Source: Pachysolen tannophilus NRRL Y-2460 (taxonomy: Eukaryota). From it: 64,000 bases of DNA. The stretch covers positions 186,001-250,000 of the forward strand of contig KV454011.1 of the NCBI GenBank assembly GCA_001661245.1. Direction: 5' to 3'. The notes under the pieces were generated by a model, which worked only from the letters and a program-made list of their open reading frames with translations, did not search any database and was not told the DNA's origin. The stretch's first letter is position 1; each line of letters begins with the position of its first letter. This document shows, piece by piece, positions 9,464 to 57,927 of the stretch. Made by a program: the position numbers and the translations under genes.

Positions 9464-11713
9464 CTATAGATTGTTTAGAATTGCTTGTTCGTTGCAGACT
9501 TCTAGATTGTCATGATGCTGGTCTTTTAAGCTCAGGTTTCCCTTTCCTGAACTGTTGTAGCTTACAATGCTTACGTTGTCCAAAGATTCTCCTTCGCAAG
9601 ACAACGATAACCCGGAAACTTCATTGACGAATTGGTAGAAGTCATATGATCTTTCCATCTCTTCGTTTACTCCATTTTCAAGGTCATTGGAAGCCTGAGA
9701 TGATAGGCTTTCATCTTTGCTAGTAGTGCTGCTGTGAATACCATTCACTGTCTTCAAAGAACTACGCTTACTTCTACCACCACCACCAGAAGAAGAAGAA
9801 GAAGAAGAAGAAGAAGAAGAACCTGAATATCTAGGGAAATGATCTTCTATCAGTTCTATTATATTTTGGCTAATTTTTGAATTTTTCAAATCAAATTCCG
9901 TGATATAAGGCTTACCTTGACTTAATTCTTCAAAACATTTCATTGCTTCATTAGCACTCATATAGTTATTATCGTCATTGATTAAATCGTTTATTACATT
10001 GATAAATGAACCAAACCCAATTCCCATTTCTCTTTCATCACTATGCTTATATATGTCAAATATCTCTTGCACTTCTTCTAGAGCCAATTCAAAACCAATG
10101 GTTTTCAAAGATTCTGCAAATTCGCCATAATTCAAATGATTTTTTTTCCCATGATCAAATTTTTTAAAAATTATCTCAAATTCTTCAATTTGTAATGGTG
10201 TTAAATTATTATTATCATTTTCAGGTAAATTGTTTCTTGCAGAAAATTGGTTTTCAATAAATGATAATTTCTCAACAACCAAGTTTTTCAATAATGAACA
10301 TTCATATCTTAATTCATCATATGTAGATGCATTATAAAGATCATTATCTTCAATATTACTTGCAATACACTTTTCATTAAGCAGAGAAATACTTTTCAAT
10401 GGCTTTTCTAAAAGTTTTAAATCTTCGCTTAGCTGAGAAATCATTTCAAGTTGATCTTCTAAATTAGAGTTTAAATTTTCTAATTGACTGTATAATTTAT
10501 TTATCTTAACGTTGATGTCCATTGAGAGACTAGCAAAATTTTCACACATTGTTTTCTGAATTTCTTGAAGTTCTTTATTTATGGATTTTGAAACTTGTAA
10601 TTCCAATTCACTTAATTTCAACCATAAACAATCAATAAACTTTGTTGTAAGATTTTCTGGGGGGTCATAAGGGTGTAAGCAATACGTTAATAATTTTGTC
10701 TTCACGTTATTTAATAATATAATTAATTCTGATTTTTCCTTTAGCCATTTTCTCTTGAGATTATTTTTGTAGATTTTATTAAAGTTATTTTTTTCCAGTA
10801 AGATTGTTTGATAATCACCATAATCTCCTTTGCTAGTATGACATTCAATCTTTGACTGCCATTTAGAAATTTGCAAATTAAGTTCATGAATCAAGCACCT
10901 GGCTCTTTTTTCATAATTATTTTGCAAATCTAAAACACTCATTGCAATACCTATAAATTTTTCAATTTTTTCAGAACTTTTCTGTTTTTCAACTTCCATA
11001 TGTTCCATATCATGGAATTTATTATACCATTCAATTAAATATGACACCACTGTTTTCTCATCTGGTATTTCTTTCAGTAAATCTTCACAATCTAATAATT
11101 GTGGTATTCCTAATTCATTTGTAGCTATATTTAATGCCTGTTGAATATTTGACAAATTATTTGTTGGATTTAACGATTCAAAATTTAATAATTCAGGTTT
11201 ATATCTATGTATTATAGCACATAACGCTAAACCATCATTCCAACTTGTGGTAAAATTCTCAACATTAACATTTGAGTGATTTTTAGTACAGCTTTGACAC
11301 CAAAGTAATAATTCAGCTTTTCTAGAACTTGCAAGACTGTTCTTGTGATTTATCATGGAAAATTGTAAAATTAAAGACCATACTAAACCCAAGATCAATT
11401 TCAAATTCCCCTCTTGAATATCTTCTGCTCCTATATTATACAAGTTGATGCTATTATTAAATTTTATGAATTCCAAAGCGTAGTTGATATTTTCAACACA
11501 TTGAATACCTAACTTTGGGTTCTCATAAATTGGTCTTATCTTCAAATCAGTATGGTTTCGTGAAATCACAGATAATAATTCTATCAAGACAACACCATCT
11601 GATAAATCTTTGGCCAAATTCTCTACTTTCCTAGCTGGTAACTTTGAGTTTATCCATCTTAAAAAAGTCTTGTGTTGGGCCTCAGCCCATTCAGGAACCT
11701 GAATATTGGCCAT
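9464..11713 (-). CDS. Alpha-actinin-like protein (CH1-CH2 actin-binding domain, helical spectrin-like rod, EF-hands)
   Basis: QHKTFLRWIN, IGAEDIQEGNLKLILGLVWSLIL, LLLWCQ...VENFTTSWNDGLALCAIIHRYKPELL, LGIPQLLDCED...PDEK; EF-hand FDHGKKNHLNYGEF; late GKPYITEFDL. Confidence 0.88.
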   Translation of the reverse strand: MANIQVPEWAEAQHKTFLRWINSKLPARKVENLAKDLSDGVVLIELLSVISRNHTDLKIRPIYENPKLGIQCVENINYALEFIKFNNSINLYNIGAEDIQEGNLKLILGLVWSLILQFSMINHKNSLASSRKAELLLWCQSCTKNHSNVNVENFTTSWNDGLALCAIIHRYKPELLNFESLNPTNNLSNIQQALNIATNELGIPQLLDCEDLLKEIPDEKTVVSYLIEWYNKFHDMEHMEVEKQKSSEKIEKFIGIAMSVLDLQNNYEKRARCLIHELNLQISKWQSKIECHTSKGDYGDYQTILLEKNNFNKIYKNNLKRKWLKEKSELIILLNNVKTKLLTYCLHPYDPPENLTTKFIDCLWLKLSELELQVSKSINKELQEIQKTMCENFASLSMDINVKINKLYSQLENLNSNLEDQLEMISQLSEDLKLLEKPLKSISLLNEKCIASNIEDNDLYNASTYDELRYECSLLKNLVVEKLSFIENQFSARNNLPENDNNNLTPLQIEEFEIIFKKFDHGKKNHLNYGEFAESLKTIGFELALEEVQEIFDIYKHSDEREMGIGFGSFINVINDLINDDNNYMSANEAMKCFEELSQGKPYITEFDLKNSKISQNIIELIEDHFPRYSGSSSSSSSSSSSGGGGRSKRSSLKTVNGIHSSTTSKDESLSSQASNDLENGVNEEMERSYDFYQFVNEVSGLSLSCEGESLDNVSIVSYNSSGKGNLSLKDQHHDNLEVCNEQAILNNL

Positions 11714-12121
11714 ATATGTGAATATTTAAAAAATCACGGAAATATTCGCAACAGGAAAATCTTCTTCTTTAATATATTTAAAATTTCTCTTTTATTTCTT
11801 CTTTAGTGGACTCGTATAAGATCAGTTTCAAGCAATAAACTGTAATGATCAACTTGAAACGATGCGTTTTAACGTATGAAACGATTTAACATTTTAAGAA
11901 ACTTTTAGAGCTCAACCTCAACTTCAACCACAACCTCAACCTCCGCTATGGTAAAGAAAATTAGTACCACCGCGCCCTTCATGCAAGATGCAGTAAATCT
12001 GAAAAATTAACGCGTTAAATTATTAATCCAAAACAGGAAATTTTTGTTTTAAATTTGATCATTTTTCAATTGCTTTACCTGTAAGACGAGTTAAATGCTC
12101 ATCTACTTTTGTATATATAGA

Positions 12122-16062: not shown

Positions 16063-17879
16063 ATGAGCCAAACATCAGTGATAGCAAAGGGTAATACCCT
16101 GTCTTCTAAAGTTCAGCTACTGGATCAAAGAATCAAAGAGCAAGCTTTGTCATTGTGAGTATGAGTATATCCGTATAAGATTTGTTTATACCTAGGGAGA
16201 TTCCTTACTAACCTTCTTTTTCTAGATTGAAAACCATTCATGATCCGTCTAAATCCCTATATTGTAGAATAGAGCACAAAACAACTAAGATGATCTCATC
16301 TGTACAGATGTGTGATCATTCGCACTTAAAACCAGTGTGGTCGGAAGATATGATTTATTATTATAGTTGTATGTTAATGGACAGGTATTTAAACCCGGAA
16401 CTCAAGTTGGGTATTTTTAGAGATTCAGAAAGAAATGGGCCCAAACTTTCTCGTGATTGTGTTTTCCATCCTTTTAAATACCAAGATGATTGGCATTTGG
16501 CTATTTTCCATAACGTTTCGAGAAAGATCATACTTATAGATTGTAATTGTAGCTCAGAAAATTCGGTAATCTTTCAGGATGGTTGCTTGTCTGTATCCCA
16601 AATGGATAAAGATTTTTTATTCAGTATTGGACTTAAACATGCTAAAAAGTTTCCATATGTATTTAGAGTTTCAAAACTTTTCACTAGGATTTCGGATGCT
16701 AATGCTAAGAATGTCTTGGGAGTCATTTATGGTATATGTTGTACTAAAAACATCTTAGATTTTTTAGATGGCGCAAACACAAAATTTAACAAGTTTGATA
16801 TTTCATTATTTTTCACCCAGGAGTTTCAGCAATTCGATAGGCACACCATTGATAAAATATATCTAACGCCTGCTGTTTTTAATGAATTGGAAGCTATAGA
16901 GAACCTGCCGAAGGAGGCCAAGAAAAGGAAAGAAAAAAAAAGCAATAACACCATACAACTGTCGTCTTCAGAGTCATTTGTGTTAGAACATGAAAATCAG
17001 TTGCTGCAAGAAAAGCCAACATCACTGAAAAAACTGGGTGTCACGAATTATCCCACTCCACCTTTAGACCCTAGTCATAATCTAGATGTAAATAATAGGG
17101 GCACTAAGAATCGGAAAAAATTAACGAAGGCAACAACCAATAGGAAAAAACTCAAGATCACTTTAATACCAGAGGACTATTTTGTTTCTAAAGATATTGC
17201 AACACAATTTAGACGTGATATTTATGGAAACATGTATGAATTTGAGGATCCAAATCTTTTGGATCAAATGCTAGATTTTTTCCAGAAATGTTTATCAAAA
17301 GAATATAGCAAAGAGGAGTACGCTTTTTGTCCAATAATGTGTAAAGATGTTGTCAATGCCGCTATTTTCATTCTAAAAAATAGAGAGAAAAAATTTGATT
17401 ACGATGATGAATATTTCGCAGAGGATTTAAAAATTGATAACGAAAGTCAAATATTCCCTGTATTTTTACATCAGACAAATCTTTACCTCTTGGAATTTAA
17501 ATGTAAGGATAAGTATCATACTTACATTAATATCTTGGAGGTCACTAAGAAAACAAACACCAGAGATATCTTAAGTACACCGATTTTGAAAAAATTAGTT
17601 GAACGCTACGCTTTTATCAATAACAGGAAAATTATGGAGGTAAACGCAGCAAAATTTTTTCTTCCAGATTCATGTTTGCATAACTTGATAATGACAATGT
17701 TTTTCATTGTGGCGAAATCGATCAAAAATAAATCTTTTTCAATCAAAGACAAAATGGATATCACTCTGATAAATGATTTTTCAAAAAACTTAAAAGAAAT
17801 GATGTTGGCAATCGAAATGGATGACAGTCAAAAGAGAGATCGTGCTTATCTTGCGATGATGGAAACCTTACAGATTTAA
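16063..17879 (+). CDS. Orphan protein of about 581 aa, possibly two degenerate Ulp1/C48-like domains; exons 16063-16154 and 16226-17879
   Basis: ATG at 16063; phase-2 intron GTGAGT (16155)...TACTAAC (16206)...TAG (16225) joins in frame to the 550-codon ORF. The gene is well supported; its function is inferred only. Confidence 0.75.
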
Positions 17880-42807: not shown

Positions 42808-43871
42808 TTAATACCTCTCGTTTCTTTTAACTACTGTATGATAATTATGATAAATGTTCTAAAAATAATAAACCAATACCTGTCCCTAAAAGCTGGCTTA
42901 TTTTCAATCCCGTGAAAAATTATTGACGAGTGATATTTTTTGACAAATTTAGACAATTTTAGACAATTTTAAAAAATTCTTCCCAGCTTTTACCTGATGT
43001 GCAAACTCCAATAAAAAGCAGCTTTCTTCACAAAATCAAATGCTAAAAACATAAAAACATCAAAATTAGAAATATCTATTGAATACAAGCATTTGCAATT
43101 ATATCTAAAGAACAACTCTGAATCTTTAATCAAGGATGATGAAAACAAGCTCTTTTATTGTCAAGAGCTCATCAGTATTATTGACCACATTAGGAAAGTT
43201 GTAAACAAAAGCTTATTTAGTAGTTCGTTAAATACCGAACCCCTTTTAACCCCTTTGTTTAATACCTCATCACTCGTTTGAATAGCAAAGTTTCATCAAT
43301 ACAGCAAACGGCTTGTTCTATCGGTGTTTATAGTGGTGTAAGGAAGTTGGAGGTATTAATCTAGCTATGGGCAAGGATTTGTATGTTGAAAAAGGTTTAT
43401 TGTGGTTGTTGTTGGGGAAGAGATAAGAAGAGTTTACTTTTTTTTTTATCTGTAAATCTTAATGATGTTTCCCCTTTCCCCTTCTGAAACCTTCTTATAG
43501 TTCTAATATATTTTTTGTTATTTTGAGAGTCAGCTTTAATATTTACTAGTAATGAAGTATCTTTTGCCTTGATCTTGAATTTTATTGTAGTTTTATTCAT
43601 TTTGGAAGTTTTAATACCGTTTCATGCATAATTATTAACAGATCAAAAAAACACTCAAACATTATATCAAAAAGATCTTTATTGTTTTATCTTCTGATCA
43701 ACAGAGTATTTCTCTCTGATGCTTTCCCTTAAAAATGGAGTTGTGTTTCTTTTTTTTTTTTTTGTTATGTTATTTAAGGTAAATCGTTTTTAAAAGGTGC
43801 TGAAGAAGCTTTTTTATAAAAACTATTTTTCTATTTTCCTTGATAGTATTTTTGAAGTCATATTCACAATT

Positions 43872-44801
43872 ATGATTCCATCTACTTTGTTACGCTTGAT
43901 TACCTTGTTAACTGTGGTTGTTTTTCTAAATGGAATAGATAGTGCCAGTATTGAAACCAAAAGAAGTGAAATGGTATTCCAAGAAGTAGATACTGTTTCT
44001 TCTGGAATCGAGCTAACAAGTTATTTGAAAGCGGCAACCTCTCAAAATGGACAAATTGGAGTTAACAACTCTTCACAATTATTTGTTGAAATAGATTCTG
44101 ATTTTTATCAAAAATTAGATACTTCAGCTATTCCCTACCCAATCTATATCAATGATACAAACGTTTACCTAAGTAAACCTTTCCCAATTGATACAGAAGC
44201 TCAGGGTATATTTGACGATTGGCTAAATGATAATCCCAACAAGCACAAGAAACCTTCCAAGACACCAAAGAAAAAAAACCCGAAAAACGCTGTTAGGTAT
44301 GAGGTTAAGGCAAACTCAATTTCCAATCCAAGGGTTGCTGCTGCTTTCCCAATTTCAGTTTGTCTTGACTCAACAGAAGGTGCAGGTGGTAAAATTGCTA
44401 AAACTGGTACTGTTACTATAAGTAGCGGTGTAAGCACAGATGTTAGTTTAAGAGATGCTATATTGGGTCTTTTACATGTGAAAGTAGGTTATTCCACAAG
44501 TTTATCGCTTTCATTTCAATTTTCATGTTCATGTAATCTGGAAAAAGGTGAAACAGTTCTGATGTATCTTGAACCTTGGCAAATTACTGCTGATACCCTG
44601 CATAGGAAAATTTACGAAACTGAAGGCCTTAGAGCATATGAACTGAATTGGTCTCCAAATTTTATAAGCAAATGGATAATAGACGTACCTCCAGGTACCA
44701 CTTGTATAACCACCAATTACTTACAATGTAATTATTTTGACCCAGATCTCGAATCAGATACTTTAAGTTACGAATATCCCAAGACACACATAGAACCTTA
44801 G
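43872..44801 (+). CDS. Orphan secreted protein (309 aa) with signal peptide, Kex2 KR site and Ser/Thr-rich beta region
   Basis: First ATG at 43872: MIPSTLLRLITLLTVVVFLNGIDSASIETKR; five Cys in the C-terminal half. Confidence 0.75.
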   Translation: MIPSTLLRLITLLTVVVFLNGIDSASIETKRSEMVFQEVDTVSSGIELTSYLKAATSQNGQIGVNNSSQLFVEIDSDFYQKLDTSAIPYPIYINDTNVYLSKPFPIDTEAQGIFDDWLNDNPNKHKKPSKTPKKKNPKNAVRYEVKANSISNPRVAAAFPISVCLDSTEGAGGKIAKTGTVTISSGVSTDVSLRDAILGLLHVKVGYSTSLSLSFQFSCSCNLEKGETVLMYLEPWQITADTLHRKIYETEGLRAYELNWSPNFISKWIIDVPPGTTCITTNYLQCNYFDPDLESDTLSYEYPKTHIEP

Positions 44802-54147: not shown

Positions 54148-54410
54148 AAGATAAAGATATGAAAAAAAAAAAGGAAAAAAAAGGCAAAATAAGGAAAAAG
54201 TCATGGGAGATAAAATACCATTTTTTAGTTAATTAGCATTTAAGGTGTGTTATATAATATATTAAATTCTTTACTTTTCTTTACGGTGTTTAAATGTTAA
54301 ATTTATTGCAATTAATTCAAATTTATTACCAATAATATAGAGTGAGTGGTAAAAACTGTATGGGTAAAAATAGATAAAATAAAATAATAATAATAAAAAA
54401 AAAATTAAAG

Positions 54411-54482
54411 CTCCGCGACGGGGAATTGAACCCCGGTCTACCACGCGACAAGCGGTAATTCTAGCCACTAAACTATCACGGA
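54411..54482 (-). tRNA. tRNA-Asp(GTC)
   Basis: Reverse complement TCCGTGATAGTTTAGTGGCTAGAATTACCGCTTGTCGCGTGGTAGACCGGGGTTCAATTCCCCGTCGCGGAG folds as a cloverleaf; T-run downstream. Confidence 0.96.
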
Positions 54483-54705
54483 CAATTAATTATTTGTTGC
54501 AATCTCAGTTGTCTAGTTCACGTGGGCTTACCACCAAATGAAAGATAATTGTATTACTTTCTTTTTTTTTATCTTTTTATTTAATTAGTTAGATATTGTT
54601 CCAGCAATTAACTTTAAAGAAGAAAATGAACATTGGTAGTTTAGGAAAAAAACCGTTGGTTCGTAAATTTTGTTAAAGAAAAAGTGAACTGTTGATAAAT
54701 AAGAA

Positions 54706-54777
54706 GCCGTTATGGCCAAGTGGTAAGGCACCGCACTTGTAATGCGGCGATCCGCGGTTCAATCCCGCGTGACGGCA
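54706..54777 (+). tRNA. tRNA-Thr(TGT)
   Basis: GCCGTTA/TGACGGC acceptor; CCGCA-CT-TGT-AA-TGCGG anticodon arm; CGCGG TTCAATC CCGCG T arm; poly-T terminator. Confidence 0.96.
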
Positions 54778-55648
54778 ACTTTTTTTTTTTTTTTTTTTCT
54801 TCTTTTTATTATATTGTTTTAACTAAGACAGACAGATGGATAAACTTTTTTACTGAAGCCGATGGAACTTGAATGATCCCTTATTTTTCTTTCTTAAATG
54901 TTTGAATGTCTAGTTATAATAATGGAAAACTAAATTTTTTTTTTTGTAAAAACTTGTTTTCTTTTCTTTATTGAGTTCAATGTTAGCAAACATTTTCAAG
55001 TCATGCAAATGTAGAGCATGATATTATCTGCTATCTTTTCTGCTATGTAAACAATTTTTCAAGATGTTTTTTCAGATTGAAAAGACGGTAAACCATACCC
55101 AAAACAAATAGTGAAACTAAAATGGAATTTTAAATTTTACAAAGTAGAGCATATTTTGAAATTGAGAACTTTTACAAAAACTCTGAATATAATCAATAAA
55201 TTTTTAAAATTATAGATCAATAACTTAACAGTTCTGTTTTCCTTTTGTTTTTTTTTTTCCCAGAAACTTACAAACAAAACACAAATCTGAGCTATTATAT
55301 ACTCTATTCTACTCTACTTTGCTTTAAAAATTAAAGGTTTATGAATAAATATTAATTGAAAGTAAGGAAATAGAGGGGGTAACAACCCCCTTTTTTTTAT
55401 TTCAAATAGTAGTGCTCCATCTACTAATTGAAACCCATCAAAATTGGTAGAATTCACTTAAAAATCTTAAGAATTTATACCTTAATTACCGTGGCGGCGA
55501 GTGGCGACAAAACCAAAGATGAAGCCGGTCCTACAGCAACAATAACAATTACTACAATCAGTTCTTAATTATTCTCTTTACCTTCATTAAAAGACAACTA
55601 ATATACAATATCACTAAGAGAAAAACGATATATACCCTCAATAAATAG

Positions 55649-55682
<34 letters not shown>

Positions 55683-55803
55683 GAGCTTAGTAAGAAGAAA
55701 AAAATAAAAAAAAAAAAACACAAAGAATCATTATAATTGAAACGAAACAAAACCCAATCCATCAAAAATAAAACGAAAAAAAAATTCAACACGAGAAACT
55801 TTT

Positions 55804-56199
55804 TTAAGCTGAAGTGGATGATGAGTATTTTGTGACAGCACGAGTACCTTCAGAAACAGCATGTTTAGCCAATTCACCTGGTAAAATCAATCTAACAGCA
55901 GTTTGGATTTCTCTAGCAGAAATAGTAGATTTCTTATTATAAGCAGCCAATTTAGAAGCTTCTGAAGCAATTCTTTCAAAAATATCATTAACAAACGAAT
56001 TCATAATCGACATTGCCTTTTGTGAAATACCAGTATCTGGGTGAGTTTGTTTTAAAACTTTGTAAATATATGATGAATAAGTTTCCTTTCTTGTCTTGGT
56101 TCTCTTTTTCAGATCTCCACCAGTAGCAGTTTTCTTAGCAGCTGGTTTCTTTTCAGCTGGTGCTTTAGAAGCAGGTTTCTTTTCAGCTTTTGGTGCCAT
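55804..56199 (-). CDS. HTB1: Histone H2B
   Basis: [23 protein letters not shown]...[13 protein letters not shown]; divergent pair with H2A. HTB1 vs HTB2 numbering cannot be decided. Confidence 0.97.
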
Positions 56200-57160
56200 T
56201 GTTTAATGATTATTTAGTAATTGATTAACAAATTTTTAAAAAAGGGAAAAAACTTAAAAAAAAAAAGTGAATTTTTTAAGTGAATTTAATCCTGTAAATT
56301 GGAATGATGATGGAAAAGAAACAAATTTTTAAAAATAAAAAATCGATTCATCAGTGGGATAATCTAATCTTTTTATATCATTTGGTAAAGTATAAGCCGC
56401 TAAAACGTTCTTATACGTCTTATGCAGATATAATTGGTGAGAATCATTTTTTTTAATGTTGTAATAGGTTAAAAAACCAGCAAAATTCAGCAAAACATAA
56501 CAAAGAAAACAAAAAAATATATAAACAAACAACAACAACACGACTAAAAAATTAAAATTAAAGTAAAAAACAACTTTTATCATATAAAAATAGGACGTGT
56601 AAATTTGAGAATATGCAAAAGATCAGTATAGAATTTACTCAGTTGTAAAATGCATAACTATGATGTACAAAGATAAACACTAGGGCGCTTACGTGTAAAA
56701 CACAGTACCACGTAATCGAAATCAAAACAAAGAAAAATAAATATAAATAAATAAAAATAAATAAACAAAACAGAAAAAACATTTTATTGGCTGAATAGCG
56801 CTCAAATGTGTAAATGCCATCACTGGCAATGGTAAACAGTTTTCCTGAAATTCATACATTGTTATTTATTTTGTTTGTTTGTTTGTTTTGATTAGTTGGT
56901 TGTTTCGTTATTACGTTATAAATTTTTGTAAAATTGGCATTATCTACACTACTGGTTTATTATTTTATTTTTATTTTTTTTTAGTTTTCGCCATTTGGTA
57001 AAGATTATAAAAAGCCCACAGAATCCGTTGCTTAATAAAAGAATTACTTCCTTTTTTTTCTTTTCCAACATCGATTGTTTAAACATCAATAAATTCAGAA
57101 AAAAGTTTCACTTTTTTTTTTGTCTTCTTTTTCTTTTAATCAAATTTATAATTAATCATA

Positions 57161-57556
57161 ATGTCAGGTGGTAAAGGTGGTAAAGCCGGTTCATCAGCTA
57201 AGGCTTCAACTTCAAGATCAGCAAAAGCTGGTTTAACTTTCCCAGTCGGTAGAGTTCATAGATTATTAAGAAAGGGTAACTATGCTCAAAGAATTGGTTC
57301 TGGTGCTCCAGTTTATTTAACTTCTGTATTAGAATATTTAGCTGCTGAAATCTTGGAATTGGCCGGTAATGCTGCTAGAGATAATAAAAAATCAAGAATT
57401 ATTCCAAGACATTTACAATTAGCTATTAGAAATGATGAAGAATTAAACAAATTATTGGGTCATGTTACCATTGCTCAAGGTGGTGTCTTACCAAACATTC
57501 ACCAAACCTTGTTACCAAAGAAAACCGGTAAGGCTAAAGCTTCTCAAGAATTATAA
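57161..57556 (+). CDS. HTA1: Histone H2A
   Basis: [29 protein letters not shown]-terminal SQEL. Paralogue numbering cannot be decided. Confidence 0.97.
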
Positions 57557-57927
57557 GTTAATTTAATTTTATATTTTGGGGTTCCTTTTTTTTTATTTTC
57601 ATAAGTGCGTGGTTGCTTTTACTTTTAGTTTTCGTTTTTTAATGAGTTTTTGAATTCGGTCTTGTCTCTGCTTTTTTTTTTTTTTTTCTTTTTTTTTTAT
57701 TATTTTATTTTACTTCTTTTTTATTTTAATGATGGAAATTAAGTAAATATTTGTATAATAGGTTCATACATTTAATTGAATGTATATGATTTCACTTTGA
57801 TATATTAATTGTTGTAGTTATTGTATTGTTATTATCAAGTTATCTTATATAGTTAACTCTACTTTTATTCAATTTCTATTGTCTTATCTATATACATGAA
57901 ACCTATAAATTATTTATCATTATATCA

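Follow-up and report, generated by a model that had tools for sequence, protein, structure and literature searches.

The window analysed here comprises 64,000 nucleotides (nt) of contig KV454011.1 of the yeast Pachysolen tannophilus NRRL Y-2460 (positions 186,001 to 250,000, forward strand), and contains at 16063..17879 a gene that an earlier note on this DNA had described as an orphan with two tandem, apparently inactive domains resembling the Ulp1/SENP (C48) proteases. We found that this gene, PACTADRAFT_73296, belongs to a family of yeast proteins with two CE-clan (C48-type) folds and no conserved catalytic site. Both the fold and the catalytic death are well supported; what the protein does is a more tentative matter, weighed below.

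Gene structure and relatives

The gene model has three parts, given here in window coordinates.

16063..16154, + strand: exon 1, 30 codons plus 2 nt, encoding a poorly conserved N-terminal arm (mean identity to homologues 0.13)
16155..16225, + strand: phase-2 intron of 71 nt, with a GTGAGT donor, a TACTAAC branch site at 16206 and a TAG acceptor
16226..17879, + strand: exon 2, running to the stop codon

Joining 16063-16154 to 16226-17879 gave a predicted frame of 581 codons with no internal stops, and the spliced product was that of the public record P0002, that is, PACTADRAFT_73296 of P. tannophilus. The clean canonical intron claimed in the earlier note was borne out, and the retranslation that it had called for, with CTG as Ala, agrees with the public protein, in which eight CTG codons are translated in this way. 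All seven peptides that it quoted were located where it had placed them (residues 69-84, 109-137, 189-202, 401-417, 439-455, 465-470 and 512-524, spanning 16338-17705). Three GT donors would keep the frame, and the only canonical one is at 16155. Moreover, T51-K52-M53 and the residues preceding them are kept in homologues and lie upstream of the first ATG of exon 2, so the reading frame must begin in exon 1. As predicted from sequence, PACTADRAFT_73296 is a real two-exon gene of 581 amino acids with CUG read as Ala.

A HMMER search with one query sequence and no profile, covering 1.84 billion representatives at E up to 0.001, returned 19 proteins: the query and 18 relatives with 19-36% identity. 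Eleven of the 18 relative clusters have species names, and all of these are from Pichiales genera or Candida species of the Pichiales group (Komagataella, Ogataea, Pichia, Ambrosiozyma, Martiniozyma, C. boidinii and C. arabinofermentans); the other seven have no species name. Pachysolen is a member of the Alaninales and Komagataella of the Pichiales, both within the Pichiomycetes, and the family is known, from this one-sequence search, from two yeast orders. The only Komagataella cluster found contained PAS_chr1-4_0036 of Komagataella phaffii, which we infer on that basis to be the orthologue. In the P. tannophilus genome the gene is single-copy. The 'orphan' without a recognised yeast orthologue is, in other words, a conserved single-copy gene. 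Word-index homologue searches returned the query alone, though relatives are present in the same collection, and say nothing on orphan status; a metagenome scan yielded no relatives among 591 pattern matches. Conservation is restricted to the two domains, mean identity to homologues being 0.29 for domain 1, 0.20 for domain 2 and 0.16 for the linker between them. Column counts given below refer to 17 near-full-length members, with fragments (P0016, P0017, P0019 and P0020) omitted or swapped for longer members of their clusters. In the case of Pichia kluyveri, the member bears the automatic UniProt name 'Ubiquitin-like protease family profile domain-containing protein', and a Ulp-type domain has to that extent already been labelled; however, the label concerns one protein, for which Pfam is empty, and is silent on the second domain and on the loss of catalysis.

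Expression data are available for the K. phaffii member. According to the accessible data of PMC4408588, PAS_chr1-4_0036 did not change in glycerol and methanol on microarrays, was 3.2-fold down at 0.015/h (limiting glucose) relative to excess glucose (log2 -1.69, adjusted P 9e-8), and gave a signal in the polysome fraction as well. By these data it is a vegetative gene that is lower in slow growth. Expression specific to meiosis, which the earlier note had proposed to examine, is unlikely, as exponentially growing K. phaffii transcribes its copy. A predicted long non-coding RNA pairing also includes the K. phaffii gene.

Folds and catalytic positions of the two domains

The protein consists of two domains separated by a linker, with the following features.

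16248..16871, + strand: domain 1 (residues 39-246), CE/C48 fold with substitutions at the catalytic His and Cys positions and a shortened variable region 2 (VR-2), in which the N-terminal hairpin and the constant helix persist
16338..16349, + strand: W69 to D72 of domain 1, equivalent of the WLND motif (tunnel Trp and SUMO-contacting Asp), with the register taken from motif order
16437..16496, + strand: G102-P103 loop of domain 1 (G102-P103 invariant), H112-P113, D119 (catalytic His position), W120 and H121
16701..16739, + strand: central helix N190-C202 of domain 1 (helix 190-203 in the model), in which N193-V194-L195 replaces D-C-G
16881..17153, + strand: variable linker (residues 250-340), of low model confidence, with basic clusters resembling a nuclear localisation signal (NLS), namely KKRK (16920) and RKKL (17112, 17142)
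17172..17831, + strand: domain 2 (residues 347-566), CE/C48 fold in which neither catalytic nor tunnel residues are conserved, with conserved motifs of its own (EFDE, QIFPL and RLVE.Y)

The evidence for the folds is structural. An AlphaFold2 model built from 23 aligned family sequences, with no templates and no C48 sequence in the input, had a mean predicted local distance difference test (pLDDT) score of 69.3, mostly 70-94 inside the domains and below 50 for residues 273-340. Its predicted template modelling score was 0.44, and the relative placement of the domains is not fixed by the model. A single-sequence model (pLDDT 34) was unusable. Foldseek returned six matches to the model at E up to 0.001, all of them Ulp/SENP or SseL entries. 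In a wide structural search of 48,161 chains, the top 29 entries were CE-type by title (Z 11.7 to 6.0), 28 of them familiar CE-type proteins and the other Lem17, and the next row had a Z of 5.2. All but one of the 29 cover domain 2, and the remaining one mixes both domains. A second structural search listed 50 matches, three on residues 39-256, 46 on domain 2 and one on both. Among these 50, domain 1 was matched by SENP7 (3eay; Z 12.0, root-mean-square deviation 3.8, 180 aligned), by 5lnb, which we take to be Ulp2 (Z 12.0), and by 7r2e (Z 11.9). Domain 2, over residues 347-562, aligned with NEDP1 (2bkq; Z 11.7-11.8, root-mean-square deviation 3.7, 180-182 aligned). The chains 5lnb and 7r2e match either half of the protein. 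Additionally, a language-model (Atlas) search with domain 1 alone scored 0.94, with 172-176 features shared with C48-bearing clusters, and placed 25 of 30 matches in clusters in which 16-23% of members carry PF02902; with the whole protein the search was weaker, its recognition falling under the tool's mark.

Sequence comparisons gave a different result. PF02902 was found in none of 19 members at E 1 and in none of seven further members at E 10, and the Pachysolen gene is not among the three PF02902 matches in its genome. A Pfam match to UFC1 (E 0.06-0.08) was rejected as chance. Searches of PDB sequences returned nothing, or matches by linker composition only. Profile-profile comparison with a three-sequence C48 alignment was not significant (E 0.18 in one run; 0.3 for domain 1 and 0.33 for domain 2 in another), although the domain 1 match was collinear over 152 columns. 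Identity to true C48 enzymes is 4-16%. The two C48-like folds are supported, then, by structure (Z about 12 in both halves) and not by sequence, and the AlphaFold and Foldseek check returned what the note had anticipated, two such folds without the His/Cys dyad. An internal duplication did not emerge at the sequence level (best blastp E 2.9; hhalign E 0.39). Either such a duplication or a fusion of two different C48 genes may have paired the domains, whose best matches differ, but by less than one Z unit.

Catalytic positions were assigned from the order of motifs, relative to the three intact C48 proteins of this genome (Ulp1, Ulp2 and Den1), and from the secondary structure of the model. In this register, His occupies the catalytic His position of domain 1 in 0/17 members, and the Cys position is Val or Leu in all 17. 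The Asp before the Cys is replaced by Asn and the Gly after it by Leu, each in 17/17, and a stray Cys at 191 occurs in one member. Position 136, which corresponds to the catalytic Asp/Asn, is D in four, N in nine and H in four members; the register of this position in domain 2 is uncertain. No Gln is conserved where the oxyanion Gln would be expected: of 17 rows with coverage of the five positions preceding N190, one has a Gln among them. In domain 2, the catalytic Cys, His and Trp are not conserved at equivalent places across the 17 members, and there is no conserved His-Trp pair. The substitution of His and Cys proposed from the single sequence thus extends across the family for domain 1, and no conserved equivalents exist in domain 2. 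Two details of that proposal were not confirmed. Specifically, the 'DSC' of domain 2, seen as a remnant of DCG, contains a Cys (Cys514) that is private to Pachysolen (1/17), and the segment IMCKDVVNAAIFILKNR, read as the equivalent of the WLND helix, probably is not, since the order of elements in the model would give that role to helix 373-387.

Compared with the Ulp2/SENP6/SENP7 SUMO-chain proteases (C48, PF02902), domain 1 shares the fold (Z 12.0 to 3eay and 5lnb, 180-194 aligned) and has a W..D helix, a P-x5-x-W hairpin and a D-C/S strand end in the same order. It differs in having 9-12% identity, no Pfam match, no catalytic His, Cys or Gln and a VR-2 of half the length, and the protein has two domains rather than one. 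Domain 2 likewise shares the fold of Den1/NEDP1/SENP8, but has 8% identity to it and does not conserve the tunnel Trp or the catalytic residues, and the genome has an intact Den1-like gene of its own. The protein has the C48 fold and fails membership of the C48 proteases. With the fold kept, the catalytic residues lost and the gene conserved, it is a pseudo-deconjugase as judged from sequence and model, and its inactivity is a prediction.

Proposed role and alternatives

In domain 1, conservation clusters at the substrate side and around the former active site. The first tunnel aromatic (position 69) is W in nine members, F in six, I in one and a gap in one, and the second (W120) is W in 16/17; domain 1 therefore keeps both aromatics (W/F in 15/17 and W in 16/17), whereas domain 2 does not. 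D72, the equivalent of D451 of Ulp1, is acidic in 11/17. In Ulp1, as described in the available text of PMC3216068, D451 forms a salt bridge with Smt3, and the dead Ulp1(C580S) binds Smt3 and its conjugates in a manner that needs D451. VR-2, which connects the first core strand to the second, carries the invariant Gly-Pro (G102-P103).

The linker is 19-245 residues long across the 17 members. Its description as Lys-rich and NLS-like in the earlier note holds for Pachysolen (K+R 21%, versus 15% overall), and K[KR]x[KR] was present in 12/17 linkers, a count attained by 3/1000 shuffles (shuffle mean 7.5). Many homologues carry an extra acidic patch in the linker that resembles a SUMO-interacting motif (SIM) and is absent in the Pachysolen protein. 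We also noted that seven of the 17 (P0012-P0015, P0018, P0048 and P0067) have, inside an otherwise free linker, KRxK followed by a spacer of 12-16 residues, PIEI(N/D)(D/E) and then acids. At the level of sequence, this block is a coupled NLS-like and SIM-like unit, and the Pachysolen protein does not have it.

We propose that the gene encodes a host, non-catalytic member of the Ulp/SENP fold, which in Pachysolen and the Pichiales would be a fourth copy, with two domains, in addition to Ulp1, Ulp2 and Den1, acting as a nuclear adaptor that does not cut, with domain 1 holding a SUMO conjugate and domain 2 docking a partner. The whole of this mechanism, including SUMO as the ligand, we put at a probability of roughly 0.4. 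Under this proposal the basic linker would direct the protein into the nucleus, where domain 1 would grip, but not cleave, a conjugated ubiquitin-like modifier, SUMO being the likeliest. The grip would use the retained substrate side, that is, the N-terminal hairpin, the constant helix with its acid and the two tunnel aromatics, while the invariant Leu after the lost Cys may plug the former active site. Domain 2 would have been turned into a docking surface for a partner, and the acidic, hydrophobic patch that many homologues have in their linkers could be a second SUMO contact. The outcome would be that a subset of SUMO conjugates is read or shielded in growing cells.

Several observations weigh against this proposal. 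The register comes from motif order and secondary structure, and not from a residue-level structural alignment, and the D451-equivalent is non-acidic in 6/17. A strict SIM pattern was present in two of 17 linkers, which is the level of chance (220/1000 shuffles attain it); a relaxed pattern was present in nine of 17 and attained by 0/1000 shuffles, but was fitted post hoc on the alignment, and the Pachysolen linker matches neither. Domain 2 scores alike with NEDP1, viral and bacterial CE enzymes and SUMO proteases, and with these scores tied the fold does not name the ligand. VR-2 of domain 1 has 20-24 residues in 17/17, compared with 37-39 in Ulp1, Ulp2 and Den1 of this genome, so canonical docking of SUMO is not to be assumed; VR-2 is described as a major modifier contact in eukaryotic CE proteases in the portion of PMC4961225 available. 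Finally, the K. phaffii gene is non-essential in two screens: in transposon sequencing (probability of non-essentiality 0.998 in the main table and 0.999 in the YNM sheet of PMC6033949, from the available tables) and in a CRISPR screen (p 0.14; PMC13343958, available data). Modelling residues 38-581 together with yeast Smt3 as a stand-in, with alignments unused, gave a score of 0.00 and no verdict, and counts neither for nor against the proposal.

The main rival is a plain scaffold, in which neither domain binds a modifier any longer and both act as structural parts of a nuclear complex. This appears possible, although we consider it somewhat less probable than the adaptor. The halved VR-2 suits it, as do the missing tunnel Trp and the new conserved surface motifs of domain 2, and there are precedents in Sad1/USP39, PAN2 and Rad33. 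These, like OTULINL/FAM105A, are protease folds without catalytic residues that are kept for binding or scaffolding (named in the available part of PMC10318531), and differ in having USP, OTU or transglutaminase-like folds, the Pachysolen family being two-domain and lineage-restricted. However, domain 1 retains its two tunnel aromatics and, in most members, the acid of its constant helix, features that a plain scaffold would have no need to keep, and SIM-like acidic patches recur in homologue linkers, as a pattern noticed post hoc. A bolder version of SUMO binding is a natural trap, in which the tandem dead SENP domains clamp SUMO conjugates or chains and shield them from Ulp1, Ulp2 and SUMO-targeted ligases, as a dedicated anti-desumoylase evolved from proteases; we regard this as unlikely. 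A related engineered protein is the Ulp1(C580S) SUMO trap, a dead Ulp domain able to bind Smt3 and its conjugates through D451 (PMC3216068, available text), which carries a single engineered substitution on an intact binding surface, whereas in the Pachysolen family the site has been rebuilt naturally and part of the surface deleted.

It is decidedly improbable that the protein instead binds Rub1/NEDD8, ubiquitin or Atg8 as its modifier, with a new specificity set by the altered VR-2 loop. NEDP1 is the best match of domain 2, G102-P103 is invariant inside the shortened VR-2, and variable regions govern modifier choice in CE enzymes (PMC4961225, available portion); yet Z differences below one are ties, and domain 1, the keeper of the substrate-side residues, scores best with SENP7 and 5lnb. 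Still a little less probable is a regulatory partner of Ulp1, Ulp2 or Den1, which would bind the active enzyme and thereby target, activate or restrain it. Dead paralogues regulate active ones in other enzyme families, and three active C48 genes co-occur with the family gene in Pachysolen and in K. phaffii; the gene nevertheless has no linkage to any ULP gene, and is non-essential while ULP2 is called essential in K. phaffii. It is very doubtful that domain 1 is rewired rather than dead, with H112, H121, C137, N193 and C202 forming a new catalytic or metal site. Four of these are invariant (H112, C137, N193 and C202, each 17/17) and H121 is present in 16/17, but H121 is replaced by Asn in Komagataella, and by the register these would be structural positions, H121 corresponding to the aromatic of the Ulp2 HWY, C137 to the Ser of DS, and C202 lying two helical turns beyond the nucleophile.

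Origin, genomic surroundings and meaning

In K. phaffii, one ULP2 match and two ULP1 matches were found, separate from the family gene. A published Ulp1-based search of that yeast gave three Ulp-like genes, for which the available text of PMC11593471 gives no locus tags; the family gene appears to be an unrecognised fourth Ulp-type gene there. In Pachysolen, the C48 gene at L004 (1366-2655) is intact and Den1/SENP8-like, which brings the active-looking members of the Ulp family to three; the second ULP1 match of K. phaffii may correspond to it. At L002 (2564-3598), Pachysolen ULP1 adjoins a Mannosyl_trans3 gene, and the K. phaffii family gene adjoins an MNN2 match; this may go back to an origin next to ULP1, or be coincidental given that the neighbours belong to a multi-gene family. 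At L011 (759-1200), a SMT3-like gene has an apparent intron after codon 80 (GTAAGT donor, TACTAAC branch site), unlike four metagenome yeast SMT3 genes, which are uninterrupted.

The neighbours of the gene in the window are PH_12, amidase, SPRY and Nse1 genes, and the amidase and SPRY genes are also adjacent in K. phaffii, where the family gene is located elsewhere. Around the gene we found no transposase open reading frame (ORF) and no terminal repeats, and there is no second copy in the genome; its flanks match elsewhere through a T-rich tract only, and the repeats present are short and of low complexity. The domesticated-transposon origin raised in the earlier note is, in its recent form, unsupported by this single-copy gene. 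Old duplication in the host is the simpler origin. A mobile source is the less likely alternative, to which the presence of degenerate C48 clusters and of proteins from giant viruses among the closest look-alikes points. We judge it rather unlikely that the domains came from a domesticated transposon- or virus-borne Ulp gene and not from duplication of ULP2, ULP1 or DEN1, an explanation that would be compatible with any function. The nearest Atlas clusters are degenerate animal and plant C48 sets (the 16-23% Pfam carriers above) together with a giant-virus cluster, giant-virus CE proteins reached E 6e-6 in the fold search of the model, and the gene neighbourhood differs between the two yeasts. 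Against these stand the single copy without mobile features, its presence across two yeast orders, and the best matches of domain 1 to the cellular SENP7 and 5lnb among solved chains, of which mobile Ulp domains scarcely form a part. The top viral fold match, the uncharacterised Pithovirus protein A0A481YN35 (686 amino acids, E 6e-6), aligns over 730 columns and so could itself contain a pair of CE domains.

Elsewhere in the window, an alpha-actinin-like gene with two CH domains and EF hands lies at 9464-11725; this family is not known from S. cerevisiae. An unannotated ORF of 335 codons at 43794-44801, with an apparent signal peptide, several cysteines and no Pfam match at E 0.001, encodes a product that is probably secreted. 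The region 54148-57927 (3.8 kb, 27.6% GC) contains no long ORF, and has tRNA genes at 54410-54482 and 54706-54777.

Regulatory and scaffolding roles are established for dead domains of the USP and OTU types. The available sections of two reviews (PMC10318531, PMC10919355) name dead USP, OTU and transglutaminase-like domains and no dead C48, and among the open-licence literature matches listed (titles and abstract openings), none described a natural dead Ulp/SENP family in eukaryotes or the two-domain form. The K. phaffii and Pachysolen locus tags gave no main-text match in the open-licence literature, in a search that joins underscores and in which such tags surfaced in supplements. The S. cerevisiae orthologue table of PMC6033949, as far as it is available, does not list PAS_chr1-4_0036. 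The family is so far known from two yeast orders only and has no known phenotype, which limits its significance, but its role is easy to test in K. phaffii, a genetically tractable yeast with a single, non-essential copy. If the protein binds SUMO, the SUMO cycle would gain a further reader or shield, one apparently missing from S. cerevisiae; and were the SUMO trap true, it would occur in K. phaffii, a workhorse yeast in which sequence searches counting three Ulp genes overlooked it.
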